Origin: Macrostomum lignano | Taxonomy: Eukaryota | Assembly (NCBI GenBank): GCA_002269645.1 | Contig: NIVC01001936.1 | Location: 151,194 to 215,193, forward strand | Length of the DNA: 64,000 nucleotides | Direction: 5' to 3' | In this document: in pieces, positions 1,862 to 20,928 of the stretch | Layout: each line of letters opens with the position of its first letter | Position numbering within the stretch: the first letter of the stretch is position 1 | Notes under the pieces: model-generated | Database searches by the model: none | What the model was told of the DNA's origin: nothing | What the model saw: only the letters and a program-made list of their open reading frames with translations | Program-made: the position numbers and the translations under genes

Positions 1862-2561
1862 GTCTGCTTGCTGTTGTGCGAGGACTTGGATAGTTAGTGT
1901 ACACTGATTCGGGCCAGTTTTGAAATGCTGGATGAAGTGGCTGCCGCTCTCTGGCGGCAATCGGTTTTGTGAGCAGTTTGAGCTCAGGAGAGCTGGGGGA
2001 GCGGGGCTTGGGACAGGCGGGAGGCGGAGGAAGGGCTCGGATTGGCTGCCGGGGGGTAGGAGGGGGTGTGGGGCTACTCAGAACCAGACTCAAGTTGTCG
2101 GACCCTCTCCCCCAACCCATCCTCCGCCACCTCCTCGACAAGTTTCACCTCTCTTTCCCGTTGAAGTCAGTCAAGTTCTCAAAAGCTTCTCTCTGAAGGC
2201 GCCTCTGAGTCCCGCTGGACTCTGCTGGAAGCTGCGACTGCCGGGCACTGCACTGCGAGAGGTGCCTCTCCGCACAGCGTGGTACCTCTCGCCGATGTGT
2301 GTGCGTTTTTGAGAAGTTTAACTGTCAAAATCAGCTGGATATTTCGCTTATTCTATTGTCTGAGCAGGGACAAGAGATTAACGGTTTAAAATATGAATAA
2401 ATATTTATCACTGTGTCGTGCCAAAGTTTAACGGGATCAGCGGGAGGTCGAATCTCGTGACATAGATGATAGTGAAATTTGTTAATAACGATATTGTCAG
2501 TGGATATGCAGTCATGACTATGACTTCATTTGTTAAAGTTTTCACCGTTTGTGCTGCAAAA

Positions 2562-3585
2562 GCGCGCTTATGACACTGCGCGCTTATGACACCGGGCGCT
2601 TATGACACTGCGCGCTTATGACACTGCGCGCTTATGACACTGCGCGCTTATGACACTGCGCGCTTATGACACAGCGTGCTTATGATACCGCGCGCTTATG
2701 ACACTGCGCGCTTATGACACTTCGCGCTTATGACACTGCGCGCTTATGACACTGCGCGCTTATGGCACTGCGCGCTTATGATACCGCGCGCTTATGACAC
2801 TGCGCGCTTATGACACTTCGCGCTTATGACACTGCGCGCTTATGACACTGCGCGCTTATGATACCGCGCGCTTATGACACTGCGCGCTTATGACACTTCG
2901 CGCTTATGACACTGCGCGCTTATGACACTGCGCGCTTATGGCTCTGCGCGCTTATGATACCGCGCGCTTATGACACTGCGCGCTTATGACACTGCGCGCT
3001 TATGGCACTGCGCGCTTATGATACCGCGCGCTTATGACACTGCGCGCTTATGACACTTCGCGCTTATGACACTGCGCGCTTATGACACTGCGCGCTTATG
3101 ACACTGCGCGCTTATGACACTGCGCGCTTATGACACTTCGCGCTTATGACACTGCGCGCTTATGACACTTCGCGCTTATGGCACTGCGCGCTTATGATAC
3201 CGCGCGCTTATGACACTGCGCGCTTATGACACTGCGCGCTTATGACACTGCGCGCTTATGACACTTCGCGCTTATGACACTTCGCGCTTATGACACTGCG
3301 CGCTTATGACACTGCGCGCTTATGACACTGCGCGCTTATGACACTGCGCGCTTATGACACTGCGCGCTTATGACACTGCGCGCTTATGACACTGCGCGCT
3401 TATGACACTGCGCGCTTATGACACTGCGTTTATTATGACACTGCGCTTATGATACCGCGCGCTTATTATGATACTGCGCGCTCATAACAGATGACACTGC
3501 GCTTATGATACCGCGCGCTTATTATGATACTGCGCGCTCATAACAGATGACACTGCGCTTATTATGACACTGCGCTTAAGACACT
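2562..3585. repeat. 16-bp CpG-rich minisatellite (GCGCGCTTATGACACT)n
   Basis: About 60 copies with recurrent variant units (TTCGCG, ATACCG, GGCACT). Confidence 0.95.
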
Positions 3586-4169: not shown

Positions 4170-4610
4170 CTAGGCGCCCCCTTGGCGCCTCTTGATGCTG
4201 GCGCCCCGTCACGATGGCGCCCCTTGATGCTGGCGCCCCGTCACGATGGCGCTCCTTGATGCTGGCGTCCCCACAATGGTGCCCCTTGATGCTGGCGCCC
4301 CGTCACGATGGCGCTCCTTGATGCTGGCGTCCCCACAATGGTGCCCCTTGATGCTGGCGCCCCCACGATGGCGCCCCTTGATGCTGGCGCCTCCACAATC
4401 GCGCTCCTTGATACTGGCGCCCCCACGATGGCGCCCCTTGATGCTGGCGCCCCCTCGCGATGGCGCTCCTTGATACTGGCGCCCCCACGATGGCGCCCCT
4501 TGATGCTGGCGCCCCCTCGCGATGGCGCTCCTTGATGCTGGCGCCCTCACGATGGCGCCCCTTGATGCTGGCGCCTCCACAATCGCGCTCCTTGATACTG
4601 GCGCCCCCAC
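4170..4610. repeat. About 31-bp GGCGCCCC-containing minisatellite running into the assembly gap
   Basis: Units resemble GATGGCGCCCCTTGATGCTGGCGCCCCCAC; the array is truncated by Ns at 4611. Confidence 0.9.
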
Positions 4611-5224
4611 NNNNNNNNNNNNNNNNNNNNNNNNNNNNNNNNNNNNNNNNNNNNNNNNNNNNNNNNNNNNNNNNNNNNNNNNNNNNNNNNNNNNNNNNNN
4701 NNNNNNNNNNNNNNNNNNNNNNNNNNNNNNNNNNNNNNNNNNNNNNNNNNNNNNNNNNNNNNNNNNNNNNNNNNNNNNNNNNNNNNNNNNNNNNNNNNNN
4801 NNNNNNNNNNNNNNNNNNNNNNNNNNNNNNNNNNNNNNNNNNNNNNNNNNNNNNNNNNNNNNNNNNNNNNNNNNNNNNNNNNNNNNNNNNNNNNNNNNNN
4901 NNNNNNNNNNNNNNNNNNNNNNNNNNNNNNNNNNNNNNNNNNNNNNNNNNNNNNNNNNNNNNNNNNNNNNNNNNNNNNNNNNNNNNNNNNNNNNNNNNNN
5001 NNNNNNNNNNNNNNNNNNNNNNNNNNNNNNNNNNNNNNNNNNNNNNNNNNNNNNNNNNNNNNNNNNNNNNNNNNNNNNNNNNNNNNNNNNNNNNNNNNNN
5101 NNNNNNNNNNNNNNNNNNNNNNNNNNNNNNNNNNNNNNNNNNNNNNNNNNNNNNNNNNNNNNNNNNNNNNNNNNNNNNNNNNNNNNNNNNNNNNNNNNNN
5201 NNNNNNNNNNNNNNNNNNNNNNNN
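4611..5224. other. Assembly gap (614 N)
   Basis: Run of N. Confidence 1.
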
Positions 5225-5322: not shown

Positions 5323-6016
5323 TGTTGGGCTGCGCCTTCAGTGTGTATGTACTGTACTTTGTTTTCAGTTTTCATGCCACCCCGCCCCGTCCCCCGTCTC
5401 GCGCCCGGGCCAGGGTTTGTGAGAGGCGTAAGTCTCAACCCTGGCCTAGCCCTTTGCACCCAGCCCCCGGCCCAATCTCTGTCCAATCTGGGTGCCCCCC
5501 CCTCCCTCGTTGCCCGCCTCACCCTGGGGCTGCTCGTATTGGCTGGCTGGCTGATAAGCCGGCTGGGCCCCAGGGTTTGGCTCGCCGTCTCCATTCTGCC
5601 CCACCCTCTCCCCTTTTTTGTGTATTATTTAAATGCTAGCCCTGAGCGGGCTGCGCTCCACGTTTGCTCTCTATTGGTGTCCGCTTCGTTCTTACTGTTT
5701 TTGCGTTCATCGGCGTACCTCTGCCTTCGCGTGCCAATAACTGCTTCGGGCCAATAAACGCTTCGTGTTAACTCGATATATCAAGAGGAGGTGAGCTCGA
5801 GCTTTCGTTCTTCTGGGTTGCCGCGTGGGGCCGGGATCTGCAGGGACCTGGGAACGGTGAACTCTCGCCGATCCCAGGGTGTTCGGTCAGGCGAACTCTC
5901 GCCGAACCGAGCGAGACAGGGTAGGAATAGCCGGGGTGAGGGCTGGGACAGGGGTGTCTCAGGCGGGAGGGCCCGAACCTTGACCCGTCCAGCGGCCATT
6001 AGGCCGAGACACAACA
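5323..6016 (+). repeat. 5' LTR (694 bp)
   Basis: Starts TGTTGGGCTG and ends ACACAACA; homologous to 13257-13982. TATTTAAA at 5626-5633 and AATAAA at 5753-5758. Confidence 0.95.
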
Positions 6017-6018
6017 AG

Positions 6019-6036
6019 TGGTGCCGTGACCAGGAT
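6019..6036 (+). promoter_or_regulatory. Primer-binding site, probably tRNA-His
   Basis: TGGTGCCGTGACCAGGAT lies 2 nt after the LTR and is complementary to the ...TCACGGCACCA 3' end typical of eukaryotic tRNA-His. Confidence 0.85.
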
Positions 6037-6140
6037 CAGCGGTCCTCTCCCCTGCTGTCCTGCCGTGTGTTTAGGGTTGTGTGTGTTGCCTAGTTTATTT
6101 GTGTGTTGTTTGCTTCGGTTGTCTCTGTGTTTTTGTAGCC

Positions 6141-7121
6141 ATGGCCAATTTAGACGATCTGATTGACGCCCTGACGGCGCGTCTGCAAAACGAACTTAAT
6201 GTGGCACAGCGGGTGCCGAGGCCAAATAAGTACGTGCCCACACAGGACTTTGCCCTTTGGATGCAACAATTCACAGGGTATTGTGAGGCGGCTCATATTC
6301 TAGGGGATCAGCGCAAGCAGGCGCTGCTCAGTCTGCTTGACTTTAATACTGCTTTTAAGGCTGTTGCGAATCTTGAGTTGGCCGATGATTTGCCGTATGA
6401 TGAGTTTGTTGAGCAGCTAGAAGCTAGGTTTGATGAGAATAGGACTGCTCAAGATTACAAGACCGAGTTCCAGAGTAGGAATCAGAAAGATGGCGAGCCC
6501 ATTGAAGAATATGCAGACGTGCTCAAGGAGCTTATGAGAAAATCGTACCCAATGCTGCCAGCGGCCCAGCGAGAAGAGTTGGTGAAAGACAGGTTTTTGA
6601 AGGGGATTCGGGTGCCAGCCCGGGTGCTGGAGAGCGTGCTGCTGCAAGCGCCAGAGACGCTCCAGGACGCTATTAGGCGGGTGCGTCAAGTGAGGGCATC
6701 GTTGGCTCTGATGGAGCCCGAGGGTAAGCGAGCTGTGCACATGGTGGGGGGTCAGGCCGCAGCGGCTGGCAACAGCCAGGAGTCCAGGGCAGCCGCCGAG
6801 ATAGCAGCTCTGAAAGCGGAAGTGGCTCAGCTAAAAGCAAGTGCTGCAGCGCCCACTGCGCCGATGGCGACAGCAAGGTCTGAGCAGCCAAAAGTGAGCT
6901 TGCAGCATCGAGCCCCTGAGCAGAGTCAGCAGCAGAGGCAGTGTGGTCGGTGCCTGCAGACAGGGCATACTACGGCTCGGTGCCGTAATGCAGTGGTCTG
7001 CCGGGAGTGTGGCCAGTCAGGGCACATGCGCAACCGCTGCTATCGTCGGTGGGACCAGTCGGGTTCGGGAAACGGATTGGGGGCTCGGCCGGGGCACCCG
7101 TCCGGGCCCCAGCGTCAGTGA
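6141..7121 (+). CDS. gag: Gag (326 aa) with two CCHC zinc knuckles
   Basis: ATG in GCCATGG context; capsid-like QxxxExIxEY region; CGRCLQTGHTTARC and CRECGQSGHMRNRC. Confidence 0.95.
   Translation: MANLDDLIDALTARLQNELNVAQRVPRPNKYVPTQDFALWMQQFTGYCEAAHILGDQRKQALLSLLDFNTAFKAVANLELADDLPYDEFVEQLEARFDENRTAQDYKTEFQSRNQKDGEPIEEYADVLKELMRKSYPMLPAAQREELVKDRFLKGIRVPARVLESVLLQAPETLQDAIRRVRQVRASLALMEPEGKRAVHMVGGQAAAAGNSQESRAAAEIAALKAEVAQLKASAAAPTAPMATARSEQPKVSLQHRAPEQSQQQRQCGRCLQTGHTTARCRNAVVCRECGQSGHMRNRCYRRWDQSGSGNGLGARPGHPSGPQRQ
7067..7110 (+). promoter_or_regulatory. Programmed -1 ribosomal frameshift signal (gag-pol)
   Basis: Heptamer G GGA AAC (7067-7073) in the gag frame, 6-nt spacer, then a 9-bp GC stem 7080-7088/7102-7110. 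The -1 frame stays open toward the protease. Confidence 0.8.
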
Positions 7122-10100
7122 ATCCGGGTGCATCGGGGGCCGCGGCCTTGTCCCAGAGTGTGCTGAGTCGGCAGGGACTGGGCTATGTGGATGCACAGTT
7201 TAGGTTTGGGCCCCGATTGCATGTCTGCTTGACAGCGGGGCCACCGTGTCGTTGTTAAGCAACCGTTTCCTGAAGTCTAAAAAGCCGACATTGACTTATT
7301 GCCGAATTTGCCGAATTTTTCCGTTTTCGCTGCCAATGGGGAACCGATTGCTGTACATGGAATGGTGACGATGAAGTTTTCTGTTGGGGACACCGAGTTT
7401 TTGCACGAGTTCGCTGTGGTCGAGGAACTGGCTGTGGCATGTATTCTGGGCACTGACTTTTTCGTGAGACACGGGATGGCGATTGACTTTGCTAGGAATT
7501 GCTTGCAGACTGCATCCTGTGTGTATCCGTTTCGCTTATCAGCAGATAAGCCGCGTCTTTGCCGTCTGGTGCTGAGTCAGCCTGAGCAGTTCAATGCAGG
7601 TCAAGAGAAGGTGGTGCACGTCAGGTTGCAGAGAAGGGTTCCCTCTGGGGTTCAGTTCCTAGGCATTGTGGAGTCTGAGAGGAGAGTGAGTAACGAGCAG
7701 ATGGTGGCCAGATCGGTACAGATGCCTGACGGGGACGGTCGCTTGGCTGTCAGGGTGTTGAACACGTCAGGATGCAGTCTGTCATTAAGGAAGGGAAGCC
7801 GAATTGGTTGGTTCTCCCCAGTGGCGGCCCAGCAGCCAGCTGGGTGGCAGGTGAACTCGGTGGAGAGTGTCCGAGACGACTGGAACCCCCTCAGCGATGT
7901 CAAGGAGTGGGGAGGATGTGGCCTGACGGGCGATGAGAAGCACGAGTTTGAGCGCCTGATGGCTCGGAATCGTGATGTCTTTGCCAGGGATAGCTCGGAG
8001 TTGGGACAGTCACACTTGATGGCGCATGAGATTGACACCGGCAACGCCAAGCCAGTAAGTCAGCCCGCGCGTAGGATTCCACCGCGCTGGAAGGAGGAAA
8101 TTGATAAGCAGGTTGATGAGTTGTTGCAGCAGGATCGCATCTATCCCTGCTACTCTCCGTGGGCGAGCCCGATCGTGCCGGTTAAAAAGGCCGACGGTAG
8201 CTTGAGGTTGTGTCTAGACTATCGGCGCCTTAACGAGGTCACAGTGCCAGATCCTTACCCACCGCCGCGGATGGACGAGACGCTTGATGCGCTAGGAGGG
8301 AACTGTGTTTTCTCGACGATGGATCTGGCCTCCGGCTATCATCAGTGCCCGATTGAGCCGAAGGACCAGTTGAAAACGGCGTTCGTGGTACCCAACAGGG
8401 GTCAGTTCGCCTGGAAGTGCATGAGTTTTGGCTTGCGCAATGCTCCCGCTACGTTCGCCAGGCTAATGTCTATGGCCCTGTCTGAGGTTAACTGGAAGGA
8501 GTGCCTGGTGTACTTTGACGATATAGTCGTGTTCGCCAAGTCGGTGGGTCAGCATCTCGAGCGATTGAAGCATGTTTTCCAGTGCCTGAGGGATGCCAAT
8601 GTCAAGCTGAAGCCCGCCAAGTGTGTGTTCCTCGCAGAGCGGGTGAAGTTTCTGGGCCACATCGTCTCTCAGGAGGGGATCGCAACGGATCCGAGCAAGT
8701 GCGAGGAGATCCAGAATTGGCCGAGGCCATGTAGCGCCAAGAAGGTGCAGGCATTCCTGGGTACGTGCGCCTACTATCAGTCATTTATCCCGCAGTTTTC
8801 AGAGATTGCAGCGCCGCTGTATAGGTTAACCGCAGACGGAGTGAAGTTTGAGTGGGGTAGTGAAGAGGAGAGCTCGTTTTGCAGGCTGAAAGACGCTTTG
8901 TGTTCACCGAATGTGATGGCATTCCCGGATTTTTCGCCTGGTGCCGGGGAGTTCATCCTCGACACGGACGCCAGTTCGCGCGTCGGGCTGGGAGCCGTCC
9001 TGTCACAGCGTCAAGCAGATGGCCGTGAGAAGGTGATCGCTTACGGGTCTAGGATGATTCATGCGGCGGAGAAAAATTATTGCACCACCAGGTTAGAGTT
9101 GCTTGCCGTCGTGCACTTCGTCAAAAAGTATAGGTACTATTTGTTAGGTAGAAAGTTCACTGTTCGTTCAGACCACAAAGCTTTGCAGTGGCTAGCCAGT
9201 CTGAAGGACGTAGAGGGTCAGTGCGCAAGGTGGCTTGAGTCGCTCCAGAACTTCGACTTTGAGATCATTCACAGGCCAGGCAAGGAGCACGGCAACGCTG
9301 ATTCGCTGTCTCGCAAGTACCGAAAACACGCTGGCCATGAGAGCTGCCCTAGCTGCCAGTTTAGCGAGAATGTGCCAGTAGTGAACGCGGTGTTTGGCAG
9401 TGGGCTGTCTTCGAAGGAAGTCCAGCAGGCGCAAGTGGCCGAGAAGAAGCTTGCAGCTGTCCGCTCCTATGCCCTGGACCCGGGTTCGAACCCCAGTGCG
9501 CCTAGAGTGATGTCGTGGGAGGAGCGTGTGCTGTGGGCACAACGGCAGCTGATAAGAGTAGAGTCTGATCTGTTGTATTTTCAGAGTCCCGGGAGTGGGT
9601 GCCAGAAAAAGATCTTGCTGCCGCCGGCTTTGCTGCCGAAAGTGCTCAGTGAGCTTCATGATGGGGTTGCAGGAGGGCACCTTGGGGTTAGGAAGACACA
9701 AGAGAAAGTGAAGGCGAGATACTGGTGGCCGGGGCTGAGTCGTTCCGTGGAAGAGTATTGCCGGAGCTGTGTCCACTGTGCGAAGGCGAAGCCTGGGCGC
9801 AGCAACCGGGCGCCTTTGCAGCCAATCTGCTCGGAAGGAGCTTTCCAGAGGATCATGAGTGACATTGTCGGGCCGTTGCCCAAGTCCAGAGGTGGCAATC
9901 GATTCGTGCTGACAATCCAGGATTCTTTTACTAAGTGGCCGGTGGCGGTGCCCTTGTCCAATCAGCGAGCCCCGACGGTGGCGCGAGCGATTTTTGATCA
10001 CTGGATTGCGCACTTTGGTTGTCCTGAATTTCTAGTCACCGATAAGGGCACCAATTTTGAGTCGGCTTTGATGAAGCAGTTGTGTCGGTTGCTTGCCGTT

Positions 10101-11002
10101 AAGAAATGCAGAACGTCCTCCTATCACCCGATGGCTGATGGTCAGGCTGAGAGTTTCAATAAGACGTTGAAGTCAATGATCAAGTGCAGGATGAGTGAGT
10201 CGGTGGGCGAAGGAGACTGGGAGGATCTGATCCACCCGTCTCTCATGGCGTACCGTAGCAGCGTTCACAGAGGCACGGGGTACACCCCGTACTACATGCT
10301 GTACGCCAGGGAGATGCGGCTTCCAGTGGACATCGGAACCTTGCCTGAGTCCATTCCTGCCAGTGCTCCGGCGTATGTTCAGTCATTAGGTAATAGTCTG
10401 GCTGAGGCTCATTCGCAGGTGCGGACCAACCTGCAGCAGTACCAGAGGAAACAGAAAGTGCTGTACGACTCAAGGGTGCGAGGCCCGGCCATAGAAGTGG
10501 GGATGCCGTCCTAGAATACTCGCCTGCGCTGCAGGCAGGGGAGGCAGCCAAGTTCCATTGCAATTGGAAGGGGCCGGCGAAGGTGTTAGAGAAGATATCC
10601 GATTTGAATTACCGGGTAAAGCACGCCAATAGGGGAAAGAGCAAAATAGTGCATTATAATAATTTGCGAAAAGTACCCGAGCGGCCTGAGCAGTTCAGGT
10701 TGATGAATAGGCATACGGCAGTGCAGCGCCGGTCGGCGCATCCGCCTGAGCCGGCAGGGTGCAGACAGGAGCCCGCGGGGCCGGCGACTAAAGAGCCGGA
10801 ACTTGAGGAGGAGGAGGAGTTTTACTCGTATGTGGTGCCACCAGTTGCCGTTGGGCCTCGGCATGGGATAGTAGGGCCGGGAACGCCAGTTGCGCCATGC
10901 GCACCGGTGGCTCCAGCGGCGCCAGCCGTGTCTCCGCGCAGACTGCGCGAGCGTCGGGGTGTGCCCCCAGCGTATTACGGGAATCCGGTATTGTATCGTT
11001 AA
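7073..11002 (+). CDS. pol: Pol polyprotein (protease, RT, RNase H, integrase) with three single-base frameshifts in this sequence
   Basis: LLDSGATVS at 7225-7251; RT motif VYFDD; RNase H FILDTDAS; integrase HHCC finger and D-D-E core; WKGP tail. Frame breaks near 7210, 7290 and 10500. Confidence 0.93.
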
Positions 11003-11339
11003 TTCGCAGTGGGCTCACAAGGCGGTCGTCATAAATTGATTTTTAATATGCACTTGTATTAATGCCTCCACGCTGTTGTCTATGGTAGAAAGCCTAAAAT
11101 AACCTAAAATGAAAAAAATGATACAACCCCAAAGCACAAAAAAATCATAAAATGGAACGCATGGAAAGCACGTAAAAAACATTAAATGTATTAAAATTAC
11201 AAAGTATGCTAGGCAAGAAGCGTTCTCAATCGTATTGTAAAATAAACATGTCATAGGATGGGTCAGGTCAGGGTCACAGTTGCTAGTCCGCAAGGCATAG
11301 GTAGTGATTGGGTTTAAATGTCATCATTGCAGGAGGACC

Positions 11340-13016
11340 ATGTCGTCGCCAACGACACCGACTGATTTGTATGGCGTGTTAGGCGTGGGTCGGACTGCTA
11401 ACTCTGCGGAGATTGAGGCAGCGTGTAGTCGTCTGTACTCAAAGCGGCCCCGCGTCTGTCCTGCCGAGGTAGAGTCTCCGGAGTCTCAGCGAGACGTGAT
11501 GGCGATGTGCGTTTTATCTGACCCAGTGTTTCGGGAAGTATACGATCGGGTTGGGGAGGCAGCGTGTCAAGGGGTGTTAAAGTTCGCCTACTTTTTCAAT
11601 CCTCCCCCTGACGTTGAGTTGCCCGAGCAGGTCAGGTTAGCTTTGGCTAGTCTTAAGGGAAGCGCCGCAGGGGAAGCTCCAGTTCACGCGGAGATCCCAG
11701 CCGAGTTATTGGCTCCGGCTGCGCTTGCTGAGTGTAGGCGGCTGAGGGGTGCGCTGCTGGCGCGGTTGAGGGCTGGGGATAGTGAAGGAGCTTGCCTGGT
11801 GGTTCAGGAGGTGGCGAGGTTTCTTGATGGGGCTGGTGTGAGTGTGCCTGAGCAGTTGTCTAGATTCTTAGCAGTGTCTGTGTCGTTTCTGTGCAATCAG
11901 TATGGGCGGAAGAGAGGTTCTGGTGGTGGCTCCGGGAGGTGTCGGAGGGTCCCGCCTTCGGTGCTGCAGGCGGCGTTTGAGTGCGTGTTGTTGGCTGTGC
12001 GGGGTTTTGAGCTGTGTGAGTTGGGGGGTCCCTTGTTGGGGAGGCTCCGGGGTCTGTCTCTCTTAGTGGATCCTGGCCTCGCGCGGCGCCCGGAGGAGGG
12101 GAGTGACGGGCCGCACCTTTCGCAGACTCCGCTGACGGCCCAGCGCGACTTGGCGACCGAAGAGTTAACGGGTGTCGACCCCGAGCAAGTACGACCGGCC
12201 GACACGGTCCAGGAGGTCTCCCCCCGTGACGACCCGAATCAGCGCAAGGTCAGCTCGGCTAAGCGTCTCGTCGATGCAAAGGCATACCTAACGAGGCTGG
12301 GCCGGTCGATTCAGCCCGAGGACCTTCGTGGCGTGCGTCGATGTCTAGCGGCTGTAAACTCGCCGTACTGCCTGCGTCTAGAATGTCCCGTGGTCCGACC
12401 ACTGCTGCAAGACCGACGGATCGTGTTCGCCCTGGGCCTGAAGGCCAGTGCTGCACCGTGGTGGCCATCGCTGCGAGACGATGTACGACGATTTCTAGCG
12501 GGTAGCTGGCCGCGTGTCGTGGCGGTCGGCGAAGTCGAGCTCAATTGGGACGCTGAGAGGTCGCAGCGCCAGGACCAGTTAACGGCGGCGATGGAGCAGT
12601 TCTTGCTTGCCAAGGAGTTCGGCCTGCCGGTTTTGTTCCGAGTTGAAGGCGGCGAACCTGCCTGGGCGGTCGCCCTAGGATTCCTCCGGCAGCCGGAGTT
12701 TCAAACGATGAGCGTCATGCTGGCCGAGGACCTGGACTTGCCGGAGGCCGTCGAGGCCGCGCTGGTGAGCAAGTGCCACGGGGTCTTCTTCGAGGTGTCC
12801 GCTCGGTGCCGAGGATCCCCGCGAGCGGTCCAACGGGCTAAGCGTCTCCCGCGGCAGCGCCTGCTAGTGACATCGGCCGCACCGTTTGGTGGAGACCCCA
12901 AGGACCCGACAGCCATCAAGTTCGTGCCGGAAGCCCTAGCGGACAGTGAATGTGATCGCAGGTACTGGACTCGACTGTTTGCGACCAACTGTAGTAGATT
13001 TTTTGGCCGATTGTAG
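11340..13016 (+). CDS. Accessory ORF3 (558 aa): J-domain-like N-terminus, helical linker, and TatD-like amidohydrolase fold (probably inactive)
   Basis: The N-terminus DLYGVLGV...EIEAA...VLSDPVFREVYDRVG matches the DnaJ pattern. The C-terminus LVDAKAYL...VVAVGEVELN...AKEFGLPVLF...RLPRQRLLVTSAAPF...NCSRFF matches the TatD pattern. The ORF is intronless and uninterrupted. Confidence 0.85.
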   Translation: MSSPTTPTDLYGVLGVGRTANSAEIEAACSRLYSKRPRVCPAEVESPESQRDVMAMCVLSDPVFREVYDRVGEAACQGVLKFAYFFNPPPDVELPEQVRLALASLKGSAAGEAPVHAEIPAELLAPAALAECRRLRGALLARLRAGDSEGACLVVQEVARFLDGAGVSVPEQLSRFLAVSVSFLCNQYGRKRGSGGGSGRCRRVPPSVLQAAFECVLLAVRGFELCELGGPLLGRLRGLSLLVDPGLARRPEEGSDGPHLSQTPLTAQRDLATEELTGVDPEQVRPADTVQEVSPRDDPNQRKVSSAKRLVDAKAYLTRLGRSIQPEDLRGVRRCLAAVNSPYCLRLECPVVRPLLQDRRIVFALGLKASAAPWWPSLRDDVRRFLAGSWPRVVAVGEVELNWDAERSQRQDQLTAAMEQFLLAKEFGLPVLFRVEGGEPAWAVALGFLRQPEFQTMSVMLAEDLDLPEAVEAALVSKCHGVFFEVSARCRGSPRAVQRAKRLPRQRLLVTSAAPFGGDPKDPTAIKFVPEALADSECDRRYWTRLFATNCSRFFGRL

Positions 13017-13244
13017 AGTAGAATTGCGTTCTTAAGCCCGTTTTCAATTTTTGCGTACGCAATAGTTTGTGTCCCGTTTTCATTTTTTCGTTTTTGTTTT
13101 TTGTAATGCCGGCGATATCCACGCGTCGCGTCAAAGTTTTTCTGTTATTTTTCGGCCGTCGTTTTTTGAATTAACTTTTTTTCAGACTTGCTTGTTCATG
13201 CGTTGCTTTTTGCTTGACATCCCCTTTCTCCTCTTCTTTTTCGT

Positions 13245-13256
13245 GGAGGGGGAGGA
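13245..13256 (+). promoter_or_regulatory. Polypurine tract
   Basis: GGAGGGGGAGGA abuts the TG start of the 3' LTR. Confidence 0.9.
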
Positions 13257-13982
13257 TGTTGGGCTGCGCCCTTCCAGTGTGTATGTACTCGTACTTTTGT
13301 TTTCAGTTTTCATGCCACCCCGCCCCGTCCCCCGTCTCGCGCCCGGGCCAGGGTTTGTGAGAGGCGTAAGTCTCAACCCTGGCCTAGCCCTTTGCACCCA
13401 GCCCCCGGCCCAATCTCTGTCCAATCTGGGTGCCCCCCCCTCCCTCGTTGCCCGCCTCACCCTGGGGCTGCTCGTATTGGCTGGCTGGCTGATAAGCCGG
13501 CTGGGCCCCAGGGTTTGGCTCGCCGTCTCCATTCTGCCCCACCCCTCCCCCTTTTTTGTGTATTATTTAAATGCTAGCCCTGAGCGGGCTGCGCTCCACG
13601 TGGCTCTCTATTGGTGTCCGCTTCGTTCTTACTGTTTTTGCGTTCATCGGCGTACCTCTGCTTCGTGCCAATAAACGCTTCGTTAGTAACTCGATATATC
13701 AAGGAGAGGTGAGCTCGAGCTTTCGTTCTTCTGGGTTGCCGCGTGGGGCCGGGATCTGCAGGGACCTGGGAACGGTGAACTCTCGCCGATCCCAGGGTGT
13801 TCGGTCAGGCGAACTCTCGCCGAACCGAGCGAGACAGGGTAGGAATAGCCGGGGTGAGGGCTGGGACAGGGGTGTCTCAGGCGGGGAGGGAATAGCCGGG
13901 GTGAGGGCTGGGACAGGGGTGTCTCAGGCGGGGAGGGCCCGAACCTTGACCCGTCCAGCGGCCATTAGGCCGAGACACAACA
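13257..13982 (+). repeat. 3' LTR (726 bp), also serving as 5' LTR of the tandem truncated copy
   Basis: Homologous to 5323-6016, with an internal duplication of about 46 bp near 13850-13935. Confidence 0.95.
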
Positions 13983-14029
13983 AGTCTCGGCCTGTTGTTT
14001 GCTTCGGTTGTCTCTGTGCTTTTGTAGCC

Positions 14030-14848
14030 ATGGCCAATTTAGACGATCTGATTGACGCCCTGACGGCGCGTCTGCAAAACGAACTTAATGTGGCACAGCG
14101 GGTGCCGAGGCCAAATAAGTACGTGCCCACACAGGACTTTGCCCTTTGGATGCAACAATTCACAGGGTATTGTGAGGCGGCTCATATTCTAGGGGATCAG
14201 CGCAAGCAGGCGCTGCTCAGTCTGCTTGACTTTAATACTGCTTTTAAGGCTGTTGCGAATCTTGAGTTGGCCGATGATTTGCCGTATAATGAGTTTGTTG
14301 AGCAGCTAGAAGCTAGGTTTGATGAGAATAGGACTGCTCAAGATTACAAGACCGAGTTCCAGAGTAGGAATCAGAAAGATGGCGAGCCCATTGAAGAATA
14401 TGCAGACGTGCTCAAGGAGCTTATGAGAAAATCGTACCCAATGCTGCCAGCGGCCCAGCGAGAAGAGTTGGTGAAAGACAGGTTTTTGAAGGGGATTCGG
14501 GTGCCAGCCCGGGTGCTGGAGAGCGTGCTGCTGCAAGCGCCAGAGACGCTCCAGGACGCTATTAGGCGGGTGCGTCAAGTGAGGGCATCGTTGGCTCTGA
14601 TGGAGCCCGAGGGCAAGCGAGCTGTGCACATGGTGGGGGGTCAGGCCGCAGCGGCTGGCAACAGCCAGGAGTCCAGGGCAGCCGCCGAGATAGCAGCTCT
14701 GAAAGCGGAAGTGGCTCAGCTAAAAGCAAGTGCTGCAGCGCCCACTGCGCCGATGGCGACAGCAAGGTCTGAGCAGCCAAAAGTGAGCTTGCAGCATCGA
14801 GCCCCTGAGCAGAGTCAGCAGCAGAGGCAGTGTGGTCGAAATGAATGA
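14030..14848 (+). CDS. gag: Second gag copy truncated at the first zinc knuckle (272 aa, ends CGRNE*)
   Basis: Near-identical to 6141-6949; homology stops at 14838 and a TGA follows within 10 nt. Confidence 0.85.
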   Translation: MANLDDLIDALTARLQNELNVAQRVPRPNKYVPTQDFALWMQQFTGYCEAAHILGDQRKQALLSLLDFNTAFKAVANLELADDLPYNEFVEQLEARFDENRTAQDYKTEFQSRNQKDGEPIEEYADVLKELMRKSYPMLPAAQREELVKDRFLKGIRVPARVLESVLLQAPETLQDAIRRVRQVRASLALMEPEGKRAVHMVGGQAAAAGNSQESRAAAEIAALKAEVAQLKASAAAPTAPMATARSEQPKVSLQHRAPEQSQQQRQCGRNE

Positions 14849-15227: not shown

Positions 15228-18166
15228 TCACTGTCCTTCAAGAGCTGTCGCCTCCGGCCTCCACAAGCGGCTGAGGTCCACCCTGTGCTCGAAGGCCGCC
15301 TCGATGCGCTCATCGCGGGGGACTCGCCTGAAGCCCTCCAGTTGGAGCTCAGTGAGCCACGGACAGCCGCTGGCGATGCTGGCGAGGGCGACGGCAGTCA
15401 GCTGGCTGCAGTCGGACAGGCTGAGCCGCCGCAGGCCCCTGGCGACCGGACTAGCGCACAGGTCGGCCACCGCCTCATCAGTGAGCACGGACTTCCTGCA
15501 GTAGATGGCCCAGAACTCGTACAGATCAGGCGTGGCAGCTTCGAAGCTCGGAAGGTTTCGCAGCTTCACCCAGGCCTGGCGGGTCAGGCAGCTGCAGTCA
15601 TGGAAGCGGAGGCAGCGCAGGCGGGGCAGCCGGGAGAGCAGAGCCGCCAGCAGGTCGTCGGTGCCCGCCAGCAGCTCAACATGGGCCAACGCTGCAGTTG
15701 AATGCAATTTATAGCAGCAGTCTGAGCATCTGGGAGAGCAGCAGTCTGAGCATCTGGGAGAGCAGCAGTCTGAGCATCTGGGAGAGCAGCAGTCTGAGCA
15801 TCTGGGAGAGCAGTAGTCTGAGCATCTGGGAGAGCAGCAGTCTGAGCATCTGGGAGAGCAGCAGTCTGAGCATCAATCCGGGTATCTACCAAACGAGCGG
15901 CAGGGTGAGCGGGACTCACCTGGACAGCCACTCAGAGTGTCAGACAATTGTAAGCTCCATGGAACATAAAATAATGATCCCGTGAGCTGCAGCCGCTGAA
16001 GCCCTGGTGGCAGCGGACAGCCCAGCTCAGCTCCGAAAAAGCACTGATTTCCGTGAATCAGCACTCGAAGGTCCGCAAGGCCGGCAGGCAGGCAGCGGAG
16101 GATCTGGCGGAGTTGCTCATCTGAGTCACGGTAAATCCCTAAATCGAGGCTCTCAAGCGAGGGCAGGCTGGGCAGCAGCCACAATACTACCTTCGTATTC
16201 CCGTTACGAAAGCTCAGGTGTCTCAGGCCGGGCACGGGCGCAGGGTGGCTATCGGGCCTGAGATCGAAGAATCCGTCCCAATCAGTCACTCGCAGCTCCG
16301 TCAGGTTCGGCGCGATGCTCAGCACGCGGGGCAACTCTAGAGGGCGGCGAGTTCAGCGAGGGCATTTAACGAAGGACCGCCGGCAGTCAAGCAGAAGCAG
16401 TTCAATAATTCTAAGGAAATTTATTTAAACCCAACTGTTGCTTGAAAATGCATCAACGGGCTTCAACCGTTTCCAATTTATCAGCTCAAAACTTGATATT
16501 TTTTACCGCCTGAGCTTCCGAAGATGAAGTGAAGCCAGTGTGGCTCGGGTCCCCAATGGTTTCACAAGTCCATCGGCCTGGATTCAGAATAAGCACTGAT
16601 ACAGAGGAGTGGCAAGCGCAAAGTCCTGCAATTGCCGTTCTTACAATCTTTTTAGTCGTCTTTAAAAGACATTTTTTGGACGAGTGACTCTAAAGGCGGG
16701 GGGCGGCCCGTGCTGTGAGATGGGGAATTGAGCAGCGCTGATGCATTCTAAGCAGCACCGGGGCTTCAAGCAGATTCCCATGCACGGGTGCCAGGTGAAT
16801 ATTTAAATAAGCCAAGTGAAAAAGGGGAAGGCACTGACGGTTGGCTGCCAACCGCACCGACAACACGGAGAGCCGGGGACACTCTGACAGATCATCAAGG
16901 AGCTCAGAAGCATCGAGGTTCGGCAGGTACAGCGCCGAGAGGCGGCCGACGAGCTTAACGAACAGCTGGCGCACCTCACGATCGCGCAGCCAGTGATGCA
17001 GGCCAATAACATCTGTAACGCAGTTAATTTCCAGCAGCGAGAGGCGCGGGCAGCCGTACAGCAGGCAGCTCAGCGAGGAGGCCGACAGCGCACTGCCGTA
17101 GCCGAGAAGGCGAAGCTCCTGCAGGTTGCGGCAGCAGCGGGAAGCCACGGTCACTGCAGTGTCTCCGTCAGTGTTCCGCAGGCTGAGGCAGGTGAGGCTG
17201 GCGGATGCAGCCAGAAGCAGTCGCAGCCGCAGAAGTGAGTCGGCTGTCGACCGCCGGCGCTTGGGAGTCAGATTTCCTGCCGAGATCTCCCGCACGCTGC
17301 CGCCCAGCCAGTCTCTGAGCCGCTCCATCAGCTCGGCATCTGCGGTGCGGCCGTCAATGCTAATTTTGCGCCACAGCCGCGGCTGCGTGGCGACCCGCCG
17401 CCAGCGCCTGCTCAGCTGAGCGCACCGGCCGAGGCTGGTCTGGTCCAGCTCGGACAGGATCTGCGTGAGCAGCTCCTCTGGCAGCTGCTCGATCAGACAG
17501 GGACTGCCAGGCTGCGGGAGTTTGGATTAGAAACAGAAGGGACAGCTCAGGATAATTCAGGACTGTCCCAGTCTCACCCACTGCCCCAGTCTCACACACT
17601 GCTCAGCCCAGATCCCACGTCAGGTCACAGCTCACACTCAGCCCAGATCCCACATCAGGTCACAGCTCACACTCAGCCCAGATCCCACATCAGGTCACAG
17701 CTCACACTCAGCCCAGATCCCACATCAGGTCACAGCTCACACTCAGCCTAGATCCCACATCAGGTCACAGCTCACACTCAGCCCAGATCCCACATCAGGT
17801 CGCAGCTCACACTCAGCCCAGATCCCACATCAGGTCGCAGCTCACACTCAGCCCAGATCCCACATCAGGTCACAGCTCACACTCAGCCTAGATCCCACAT
17901 CAGTTCGCAGCTCACACTCAGCCCAGATCCCACATCAGGTCCCAGCTCACACTCAGCCCAGATCCCACATCAGGTCGCAGCTCACACTCAGCCCAGATCC
18001 CACATCAGGTCGCAGCTCACACTCAGCCTAGATCCCACATCAGGTCACAGCTCACACTCAGCGTGGACTCCGAGGTCCCCCGCTCGTCTTCACCGGCCGC
18101 CTCAGCCGCCTCCAGCCGCAGAGACTTCGGCGCCGGACCCTCTTGACTCGCGCAGGCCTCCGCCAT
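15228..18166 (-). CDS. F-box/LRR (FBXL-like) gene A, 4 exons, 554 aa, apparently intact
   Basis: Exons 18166-18056, 17511-16839, 16336-15920 and 15691-15228; all GT-AG, phases 0/1/1, total 1665 nt. F-box EQLPEELLTQILSELD...RRWRR followed by cysteine-containing LRRs. Confidence 0.85.
15715..15872. repeat. 24-bp intronic minisatellite (GAGCATCTGGGAGAGCAGCAGTCT)n, about 6-7 copies
   Basis: Same unit as 24944-25395 and 42979-43617. Confidence 0.9.
17598..18060. repeat. 35-bp minisatellite containing the exon-1 donor of gene A
   Basis: Unit CTCACACTCAGCCCAGATCCCACATCAGGTCACAG, about 13 copies; each carries AGT|GTGAGC on the minus strand. Confidence 0.9.
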
Positions 18167-18491
18167 GGTGCGGCTGCAATGATGAAGCTGCTCTCCAGTC
18201 TCTGCGAGCTCAAAGCAGGAAATCAAAACAGTTCCGAGCTTTGCCTGCTCTGGGAATTAAAAATATGCAGAAACGCCAAGTCCGCGGGACCTTTGTTGCC
18301 TTCACAGGAGAATTCATTCAAGTTAGATTATTTTATTGATAAAAATTTAGCAAAATACTAGCAATCTTCGCCCCCCCCCCATCGGGGGACATCTGAATAG
18401 AATCTCTGTTCTCTATAAGTAACAAAAAGACAGACAAATAAAGCCTTTACAAAGACAACAGAAAAACTGCTCAAATGTAGTGCAATGCAAG

Positions 18492-18980
18492 AATTCATGA
18501 AGGCCTGAGTCTCCATGCCGTTCATCAGGCTCTCTATAATTCATCAAGGCCTGAGTCTCCATGCCGTTCATCAGGCTCTCTATAATTCATCAAGGCCTGA
18601 GTCTCCATGCCGTTCATCAGGCTCTCTAAAGTTCATGAAGGCCTGAGTCTCCATGCCGTTCATCAGGCTCTCTATAATTCATCAAGGCCTGAGTCTCCAT
18701 GCCGTTCATCAGGCTCTCTATAATTCAAGAAGGCCTGAGTCTCCATGCCGTTCATCAGGCTCCCTATAATTCATCAAGGCCTGAGTCTCCATGCCGTTCA
18801 TCAGGCTCTCTATAATTCATCAAGGCCTGAGTCTCCATGCCGTTCATCAGGCTCTCTATAATTCATCAAGGCCTGAGTCTCCATGCCGTTCATCAGGCTC
18901 TCTATAATTCATCAAGGCCTGAGTCTCCATGCCGTTCATCAGGCTCTCTACAATTCATCAAAGCCTGAGTCTCCATGCAC
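18492..18980. repeat. 46-bp minisatellite between genes B and A
   Basis: AGGCCTGAGTCTCCATGCCGTTCATCAGGCTCTCTATAATTCATCA, about 10 copies. Confidence 0.9.
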
Positions 18981-19098
18981 TGCCTACAAAAACAGAAGCA
19001 GAAAGACGCAGCCACAAGAAGGCAGATTTGCCAGAAGCAGCAGTGCATTCAGTTCATCTCAGCCAACTTATAAAAATATGTAAATGGACACACAAAAG

Positions 19099-20928
19099 TC
19101 ACCAGGGAAAATCGTCCTCAGACCAGCCACCGTTCAGCTCAACGCTCTGCTCGAAGGCAGCCCGAAGGTCTTCAGCTTCGTCAGCGCAGGAGCGCCACCG
19201 GAGGCTCAGGCGGGTCAGCAGCGGGCAGCCGCTGGCGATGCTGGCCAGCGAGGCGGCCGTCAGCTGACTGCTGAGCTCAGACGACAAAAGCAGCCGCCGA
19301 AGTCGCCTGGCAACCGGACTGGCGCACAGGTCGGCCACCGCACCATCGGTGAGGCTGGAATAGGCGCACTGGTGAGCCTGGAGCTCGTGCAGGTCGGGTG
19401 AGGAGGCGGCGAGGCCCTGCAGGTCTCGGAGGTTCGCCCAGGCCTGGCGGGTCAGGCGGCTGCAGTCGAAGAAGCGAAGGCAGCGCAGGCGGGGCAGCCG
19501 GGAGAGCAGAGCCGGCAGCAGGTGGTCATCGCTGCACGCTTGGAGAGCGAGGTGGGTCATGCCTGCAGTGGGGAGTGAGGTGGGTCAGGCCTGCAGTGGG
19601 GAGTGAGGTGGGTCAGGCCTGCAGTGGGGAGTGAGGTGGGTCATGCCTGCAGTGGGGAGTGAGGTGGGTCAGGCCTGTAGAGGGGAGTGAGGTGGGTCAG
19701 GCCTGTAGAGGGGTGTTAGGTCGGTAACGCTAGCAGAGATGGGAATGTGAGCAATAAGAGCAACACCTGCAAAAAGAGTGAGCATCCTAATGACTCACCT
19801 GAGCAGCCTGACAGCGGATCTGTCTGCCGCAGGATCCAATCGGTGTCAAAGGCGGACCCGGTGAGCTGCAGACGCCGCAGGCTCAGAGGCAGCGGGCCGC
19901 TCAGCTCGGCCTCATCATCCGCTCCCAGCTGCTCCAGAAAGTGCAGCCGAAGGTCCGCCAGGTCGCCGGGCAGGCAGCGGACGATGCGGCGGAAGTCCTC
20001 GCCGAGTATGCCGGACGAGACGGTGCTGAAGCTGCTGAGTGCCGGGAGGCTGGGCAGCAGCTCCAGCAACATCTCGGGGACTCGGACTCGACCGCCAGGC
20101 GGGCCGCCGCCGATGCTGAGCCGCCGCAGGCTGGGGAACGGCGGGAAGTTCAGCATGGCGGCTTCATCCTGGCTGCTGAGCGTCTCAACATGCAGGTCGG
20201 TCAGGTTCCGGGCGCTGCTGAACACCGTCTGCAGCTCTGGGTGCAGGTGGGCGGAGAGGTGCGGGGCTCGCGAGCTGAGACCCTCAGGATCGGCAGGCTG
20301 GGGACTCACCAGGAAGGCTGAGCTGGTAAACAGACAGGCTGAGCAGCAGAGGGCATTCAGGCAGCTCGCTGATGAGTTCCGCAGCTTCATCAAGAGAGAT
20401 GCTGAGGCTGCTGAGGCGGCCAATAAGATCAAAGAGCAGCCAGCGAAAGTCTGGGTCCTGCCAGTCGCTGAGGACCCCCTTGTCGCTGAATTCCAGCAGC
20501 GAGAGGCGCGGGCAGCCGGACAGCAGGCTGCTCAGCGAGGCGGCCGACAGCGAATTCTGGCAGTCGGTGAGGCGCAGCTCCAGCAGGCCGAGGCAGCTGC
20601 GGCCCGCCTCCGTCACTGCAGCGTCGCCGCGCACCTCCCGCAGGCTGAGGCAGGTGAGGCTGGCGGATGCGGCCAACAGCAGTGGCAGCCGCTGCTCGGC
20701 TGTCAGCCCGCAGGCCGAGATCTCCCGCACGCTGCCGCCCAGCCAGTCTCTGAGCCGCTCCATCAGCTCGGCATCTGCGGTGCGGCCGTCAATGCGGATT
20801 TCGCGCCACAGCCGCGGCTGCGTGGCGAGCCGCCGCCAGCGCCTGCTCAGCTGAGCGCACCGGCCGAGGCTGGTCTGGTCCAGCTCGGACAGGATCTGCG
20901 TGAGCAGCTCCTCTGGCAGCTGCTCCAG
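19099..20928 (-). CDS. F-box/LRR gene B (5'-most exon or start not identified)
   Basis: Exons 20928-20310, 20236-19799 and 19562-19099, GT-AG, phases 1/1, open throughout. Confidence 0.82.
19551..19715. repeat. 28-bp minisatellite containing six tandem 3' splice sites
   Basis: Minus-strand pyrimidine-rich ...CTGCAG|G or ...CTACAG|G repeated at 19561, 19589, 19617, 19645, 19673 and 19701. Confidence 0.9.

Follow-up and report, generated by a model that had tools for sequence, protein, structure and literature searches.

We have analysed a window of 64,000 nucleotides of Macrostomum lignano DNA (assembly GCA_002269645.1, contig NIVC01001936.1) and found in it a long terminal repeat (LTR) retrotransposon which carries an accessory gene, ORF3, behind pol. 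All of its parts lie on the forward strand. The 5' LTR (5323..6016, TG...CA, with a TATA-like box at LTR position 304 and AATAAA at 431) is followed by a primer-binding site (PBS, 6019..6036), which we take to be of the tRNA-His type, and by gag (6141..7121), which encodes 326 aa with CCHC knuckles (Pfam Retrotrans_gag E 7.8e-5, zf-CCHC). The pol open frame (7281..10514) covers the end of the protease region, reverse transcriptase (RT), RNase H and integrase (RVT_1 E 5.7e-33, RT_RNaseH E 1.7e-33, rve E 5.5e-8), and the C-terminal tail of the integrase stands in a second frame in this copy (10406..11002, Integrase_p58_C E 2e-9). ORF3 runs from the ATG at 11340 to the stop codon ending at 13016, and the polypurine tract (PPT, 13245..13256) and the 3' LTR (13257..13982), which holds a 47-bp internal duplication, close the element. 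The coordinates that a sequence-only reading had given for the element, the integrase stop (11002) and the PPT hold, as does its description of ORF3 as an intronless, uninterrupted gene of 558 aa.

Paired TG...CA LTRs, a PBS, a PPT, and gag followed by pol in the order RT-RNase H-integrase assign the element to Ty3/Gypsy (Metaviridae), whose members, including the env-bearing errantiviruses, share with it the layout LTR-PBS-gag-pol(PR-RT-RH-IN)-ORF3-PPT-LTR and 4-bp target-site duplications (TSDs). The PBS and the TSD habits presumably point to the Gmr1/Osvaldo clade, which we use as a lead only. The two LTRs of the window copy have 10 mismatches over 672 aligned columns, besides indels. The frame of pol is broken near 7210-7280 and near 10500, and contigs from sequencing runs differ from the window copy at both sites; the breaks are possibly assembly errors. 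The window copy has no TSD, and its 3' LTR is followed in tandem by a partial second copy (13983..~14838, a leader fragment and most of gag); the sequence-only reading was silent on the pol breaks, the missing TSD and this partial copy.

ORF3 occupies the slot of env, and it was rightly considered not to be one. On the one hand, it resembles the third ORF of errantiviruses in its position and in its splice signals. On the other hand, the errantiviral env is a fusion glycoprotein, whereas ORF3 appears to be a soluble J-domain protein: it has no signal-peptide-like or transmembrane-like stretch (Kyte-Doolittle 19-residue maximum 1.49, and 0.46 at the N-terminus) and no fusion-glycoprotein fold. 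The claim that it also lacks a furin site was incorrect, since R-x-[K/R]-R motifs occur at residues 200 and 499; these are meaningless because the protein has no signal peptide. A survey of env genes leaves DnaJ, J-domain, TatD and Macrostomum unmentioned (PMC13524379).

The predicted protein consists of a J-like domain (residues 9-69, 11364..11546, with a family-wide extension to about residue 100), a helical domain which we call H (residues 130-248, 11727..12083, five helices with a basic Gly/Arg loop), an acidic linker of low model confidence (12084..12269) and a pseudo-TatD TIM barrel (residues 311-558, 12270..13013). A single-sequence AlphaFold model of the whole protein reached a pLDDT of 39 and was discarded as useless. 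The DnaJ match of the window protein is below the Pfam cut-off (E 0.0025, 18.3 bits against 27.8), while DnaJB proteins in the PDB match at E 5e-5 and the modelled helices lie at residues 10-77. Among the related families in the same genome, which we denote B to I (A being that of the window), there are sisters that exceed both Pfam cut-offs, with DnaJ, in B to H, at E 1e-12 to 5e-18 and TatD at E 1e-8 and 1e-7. The HPD motif is intact in seven families (B, C, D, E, F, G and H) and missing in family A, where 19 of 20 loci have the HPD-less motif of the window copy and one was not matched. In the J-domain tree, seven of the eight element rows group together with weak support, and the branch of family A is long (1.4 vs 0.13-0.18). 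The proposed N-terminal J domain is therefore borne out: by sequence, the window protein is J-like and its sisters are J proteins.

The H domain, which had been overlooked in the sequence-only reading, is conserved and common to all J-bearing families. When its profile was compared with Pfam, no family was found in more than one of seven members, and against the PDB the best match (E 0.036) fell on designed helical bundles. As judged from these profiles, H is a new predicted helical domain with no known relative. ORF3 proteins also contain acidic tracts of down to -13 per 25 residues. A word-index search with ORF3 gave no match, and the ESM Atlas returned no usable match for ORF3 or H, which says nothing on novelty.

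At the C-terminus, the window protein matches Pfam TatD_DNase at residues 359-535, below the cut-off (E 4.9e-5, 23.3 bits against 27). A profile built from seven ORF3-type segments, with no bacterial sequence included, retrieved 12 PDB sequences, all 12 of which are of the TatD/YcfH/YjjV/TATDN type (best E 1.4e-8), and a fold model, whose alignment included four bacterial TatDs and which is of low confidence at residues 310-345, agrees with a TatD-type TIM barrel, as had been suggested. The metal ligands of TatD nucleases are HxH or (G/A)xN, Glu, two His and Asp (PMC10085689). ORF3 differs from these enzymes in that the HxH, both His and the Asp are replaced (K314/Y316, R434, A462 and A513), leaving only the Glu (E398) of six positions, and in that the barrel is fused to J and H. 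The predicted barrel is thus a pseudo-nuclease, in line with the original description, and the ligands are lost already in the HPD-bearing families B and C. Its best outside matches are unnamed or YcfH-like proteins with 30-38% identity; the host TATDN exons match it no better, and the host TATDN1-like and TATDN3-like genes are separate, with intact motifs. Another public data set contains a 166-aa protein (P0004) which has 51% identity with the barrel of family A and has lost the same ligands, indicating that the gene is not confined to GCA_002269645.1.

The TatD part found 39 matches from 48 candidates in its own genome. These are lower bounds and not copy numbers; redundant copies are present in the assembly, L063 having the same flank as the window copy. 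We fetched 33 loci, 19 of family A and 14 of the divergent families B and C. Wherever flanks were readable, ORF3 or its remnant lay between the integrase tail and the PPT with the LTR, confirming that the gene is inside the element; one locus (L043) is a 3' fragment with the LTR only. The search found no host-gene copy. Starting from RT, to avoid bias, we found that 20 of 20 matches of at least 97% are accompanied by ORF3 sequence where its distance from RT would place it (19 recognised through TatD and one through J), so ORF3 is a fixed part of the family. Including the window copy, ORF3 is unbroken at 10 of 20 family A loci, and 14 of 20 have 4-bp TSDs and distinct flanks. UniRef contains proteins labelled Macrostomum lignano which are 97-100% identical to ORF3. 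They are chimeric gene models, entered under the names 'ribonuclease H' or 'J domain-containing protein', and do not describe an element gene.

Selection on ORF3 was estimated by the Nei-Gojobori method from three family A subfamilies and from B vs C. The dN/dS of ORF3 between the window and two 95%-identical subfamilies is 0.28 and 0.33 (p 5e-6 and 5e-5), and between those two subfamilies 0.32 (p below 1e-4); the values of family A pol and gag are 0.08-0.15 and 0.10, respectively. By domain, H is the most constrained part of family A ORF3 (0.12-0.22), followed by J (0.18 and 0.57) and TatD (0.36 and 0.47), where the J value of 0.57 and the TatD value of 0.47, both from one subfamily, do not differ significantly from 1. 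Between B and C, dN/dS is 0.06-0.12 (J 0.09, H plus TatD 0.12) at a dS of about 2-3. ORF3 is under purifying selection and does not evolve neutrally. Families A and B/C are about 30-40% identical in pieces of ORF3 and about 55% in pol.

A search of the genome with the B/C-type J domain scored 150 matches of 226 candidates, many of them in multi-copy frames of about 290-360 aa. Of 20 of these loci that we fetched, 19 lie close to a match to pol or the integrase tail, including one (L162) that is probably a nested fragment, and the remaining locus is a host DNAJB gene. The former reveal five further families, D-H, with LTR pairs 98-99.8% alike, whose ORF3 is predicted to consist of J with HPD, an acidic linker and H, with no TatD; at L145-L157, 12 of 13 of these loci are unbroken through H. 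Family F has a chromodomain between the linker and H (Pfam Chromo E 1.4e-12; best PDB matches Swi6/HP1, E 2.5e-10), in which one cage aromatic is seemingly missing at the positions that we take to be those of the cage. In the RT-RNase H tree (19 rows), every J-bearing row is in one branch (96/96), which splits into A, B, C and the ORF3-less family I (98/98) and D-H (95/97), indicating that TatD was added once; the three outgroup rows, over the stretches that were read, lack an ORF3 belonging to them. Accordingly, the proposed J and TatD fusion stands in its domains and fails where TatD is taken as the core. The predicted core of ORF3 is J plus H, common to at least eight families, and we have shown two predicted add-ons on it, the pseudo-TatD (A, B and C) and an HP1-like chromodomain (F). 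Chromoviruses are likewise Gypsy elements with a chromodomain, but theirs is at the end of the integrase, whereas that of family F is inside a separate J protein.

ORF3 has also been lost. In family I, which is the closest sister of A with 75% identity in pol, neither of the two loci read to the PPT retains any trace of it, the third locus being interrupted. Three B-type copies retain only a 3' remnant of TatD between LTRs that are 99.6-99.9% alike. J, H and TatD are also absent at four loci of more distant families (L169-L171 and L173), within a survey that covered nine of 20 RT-neighbour loci. Because family I does without the gene and the B remnant copies have such similar LTRs, ORF3 is dispensable in cis. 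None of the 14 B/C loci fetched has an unbroken ORF3, so the form with both HPD and TatD is seen only in broken copies. The loss in family I, together with the missing HPD and catalytic residues and the many broken copies, would suit a passenger, that is, pieces of captured host or bacterial genes decaying within the elements. This explanation is largely refuted by dN/dS, as every whole-ORF value is well below 1; furthermore, frames stay open across families with near-saturated synonymous sites, and the D-H frames mentioned above are nearly all unbroken through H. We consider it hardly tenable.

A second explanation is that ORF3 serves replication or integration of its own element. The J domain would bring Hsp70 to the element's Gag, RT or integrase, for particle assembly, RT activation or intasome release, and the chromodomain and dead TatD would anchor the integration complex or protect the ends of the cDNA. 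ORF3 does travel with one pol clade, J proteins of viruses act in replication and in the assembly of capsids, as in SV40 (PMC3486835), TatD is a fold that binds DNA 3' ends and AP sites (PMC10085689), and Gypsy integrases are known to bear chromodomains. However, ORF3 diverges much faster than pol (dN/dS 0.3 vs 0.08-0.15), close relatives have spread without it, and the flanks of 14 family A insertions have no obvious common motif, as judged by eye, which speaks against guided integration. We regard this explanation as rather unlikely.

Signals around ORF3 suggest how it may be expressed. A putative splice donor is in the 5' LTR just past the polyA signal (5790..5796; the intron would start at 5791), and a UniRef gene model (P0005), which may be ab initio, has the same join. 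A putative YAG acceptor (11330..11332) lies 7 nt before the ATG of ORF3. Each of the eight families has such a YAG, 0-16 nt ahead of its J start; in six families it overlaps the start or is at most 1 nt away from it. As a baseline, about 0.30 of the 13-nt windows drawn from the intergenic regions concerned contain a YAG. All eight also have a GT[AG]AG donor at LTR positions 469-615, past the polyA signal where this is seen. Families B and C have no genomic ATG at the J start, and the last base of the donor exon would complete one; likewise, splicing creates the env start codon in fly gypsy. These signals and the B/C start codon point to a spliced, env-like subgenomic RNA, from which we infer that ORF3 would be translated. 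Spliced-leader (SL) trans-splicing occurs in flatworms and could also use the acceptors. Four sequencing runs over 5323-13250 contain no splice joint, and at least two of them look like DNA, as judged by flanking sequence beyond the LTR end.

The LTRs also bear on a role as stress cargo of benefit to the host, in which the J protein would modulate the heat shock response (Hsp70/HSF) and open a window for element transcription. Phage Rki acts in this way on sigma32 (PMC3486835), and induction by heat through heat shock elements (HSEs) is described for several LTR families of M. lignano (PMC12801592). Against this, a canonical HSE, with one mismatch allowed, occurs in 0 of 13 LTRs of families A-H and 0 of 8 regions before ORF3, indicating that these are not the HSE families of that report, and the chromodomain and TatD are left unexplained. 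We therefore find this role very improbable.

We consider that ORF3 may be a non-structural, modular accessory protein of this Gypsy clade, a class C J-domain protein which counters silencing in trans; as a reading of the sequences, we hold this to be a little short of probable. The 5' LTR donor would be joined to the acceptor just before the J domain, as for env. In HPD-bearing families, J would stimulate host Hsp70 on a client gripped by H, and the add-ons would direct the protein to chromatin or nucleic acid. The client would belong to the host silencing or chromatin machinery, so that ORF3 would relieve the silencing of its own elements in trans. By their families, both add-ons, which are independent of each other, are binders of chromatin or DNA. 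Since the add-ons are of this type, the evolution of ORF3 outpaces that of pol and the gene can be dispensed with in cis, trans counter-silencing fits better than the rival explanations. The target is a guess, because the H domain, which would hold the client, has no known relative. Considering that the core is J plus H and TatD is an add-on, the cDNA shielding and the decoy against TatD nucleases that were originally put forward cannot be the ancestral function; we infer that Hsp70 recruitment would be the better starting point.

The window family itself, with its HPD-less J domain on a long branch, speaks against anti-silencing. So do the dispensability of ORF3 in cis, the lack of unbroken frames among the B/C loci fetched, the J and TatD values of family A that do not differ significantly from 1, and the cage aromatic seemingly missing from the chromodomain of family F. 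As HPD is lost in family A, the Hsp70 step is probably absent there, and we propose binding alone, whereby ORF3 would engage the same target as a binder or decoy. A different possibility is that family A ORF3 took on a non-ancestral role, acting as a decoy or in a dominant-negative manner on J proteins, partners of TatD or sister ORF3s, in element-versus-element or copy-number control. Both recognisable activities are lost in this family, yet the frame is kept at half of its loci, as counted above, and is under selection, and its long J branch would agree with such a change. On the other hand, the TatD ligands were gone already in B and C, which keep HPD, and the strongest constraint on H in family A fits an unchanged client. 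We deem this role improbable.

Counter-silencing by an element-encoded J protein has precedents in its parts. Virus-encoded J proteins hijack Hsp70 and require HPD for this (PMC3486835); Argonaute is loaded by J/Hsp70 (PMC11194074); piRNA biogenesis can collapse through Hsp70, freeing transposons (10.1101/423210); and in plants, J-domain proteins that contain a domain for histone binding drive a remodeller of chromatin (10.64898/2026.09.14.751395). Like polyomavirus T antigens and Rki of phage RB43 (PMC3486835), ORF3 has an N-terminal J domain followed by element-specific domains in a class C layout. It differs from them in being carried by a retrotransposon, in its unrelated H domain, in the LxCxE motif of polyomavirus T antigen, which occurs in 0 of 8 proteins scanned, and in the absence of HPD from the window family. 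As a functional analogue, we propose VANC of the Arabidopsis VANDAL elements, which is also element-encoded, fast-evolving and unneeded for transposition chemistry; VANC proteins are family-specific anti-silencers (PMC6719617). VANC belongs to a plant DNA transposon and its anti-silencing is demonstrated, whereas that of ORF3 is our proposal, and we suspect no homology.

We conclude that this Gypsy element carries an accessory gene of a new class, and an earlier catalogue may hold a note of such elements. The literature search, with full texts of subscription journals mostly outside its scope, gave no retrotransposon-encoded J or TatD protein among the matches listed, and a survey of M. lignano LTR elements leaves DnaJ, TatD and ORF3 unmentioned in its main text and supplements 1 and 3 (PMC12801592). 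Two candidates for prior reports of element-encoded J or TatD proteins, PMC6962438 and PMC7738191, were irrelevant.

In summary, the ORF3 clade clearly illustrates how modules are swapped in the slot of env. It may further represent a metazoan platform for hijacking Hsp70, in which a spliced J protein in the env slot grips a silencing factor through H and reader modules target the chromatin or DNA of silenced elements, a picture that we offer as doubtful. If true, VANC would have a chaperone-based counterpart in animals, and transposon counter-defence would gain a new class. Few proteins that transposons encode for this purpose are known, and the best example comes from a plant DNA transposon (PMC6719617). 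As Hsp70 and J proteins take part in Argonaute and piRNA loading and in chromatin remodelling, an element-encoded J protein allows the connection of chaperones with the release of transposons to be tested directly. M. lignano is a model with transgenesis (PMC12801592), and its one genome provides natural controls, namely, families with HPD, without HPD, with the chromodomain, with the pseudo-TatD and without ORF3.

In the closest sister family of the window element, which is 75% identical to it in pol (L165, L167), the interval between integrase and PPT spans 1.2-1.3 kb, and no trace of ORF3 was found there (L165:1-2600, L167:2565-3770). In another Gypsy family (L151-L153), ORF3 consists of a J domain, an HP1/Swi6-like chromodomain and the H domain, as exemplified by L152:7171-8154, and about 20 matches of a similar kind came out of the genome search. 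As for the pseudo-TatD part, P0004, a public protein from another data set, is 51% identical to the family A domain and is nearer to it than those of families B and C are.

The B/C-type copies L040-L042, L033 and L039 have a mosaic appearance. Because their RT regions are 94-96% alike, yet their 3' ends and ORF3 types differ, recombination between families is suggested. Loci L031 and L032 hold ORF3, a remnant of the integrase tail and a 3' LTR, with no gag or pol nearby; from this layout, they appear to be ORF3 carriers that are either truncated or non-autonomous. Among the family A loci (L044-L063), unrelated insertions showed the same frame-break positions, after 79 aa of ORF3 in four loci and after 220 aa of gag in four loci. 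These recurrent breaks are due either to misassembled base runs or to sublineages that the loci have in common.

In the window, an assembly gap, the N run at 4611-5224, lies 100 bases ahead of the 5' LTR. Directly after the 3' LTR there is a partial second copy in tandem (13983-14838); it has no PBS, its leader is incomplete, and it ends abruptly inside gag. Many minisatellite arrays were observed (325-1100, 2430-3400, 4180-4610, 17500-19100), with periods of 16, 20-22, 30-32, 35 and 46. Downstream of the element, at least four near-identical genes are clustered on the minus strand of 15100-43200, along with tandem-repeat insertions; by their motifs, judged by eye, the genes are F-box/leucine-rich-repeat-like.

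The 5' LTR ends of L146, L148, L152, L154 and L156 revealed at least four different primer-binding sites among the J-bearing families. Given this diversity, the primer tRNA would have switched within the J-bearing clade.
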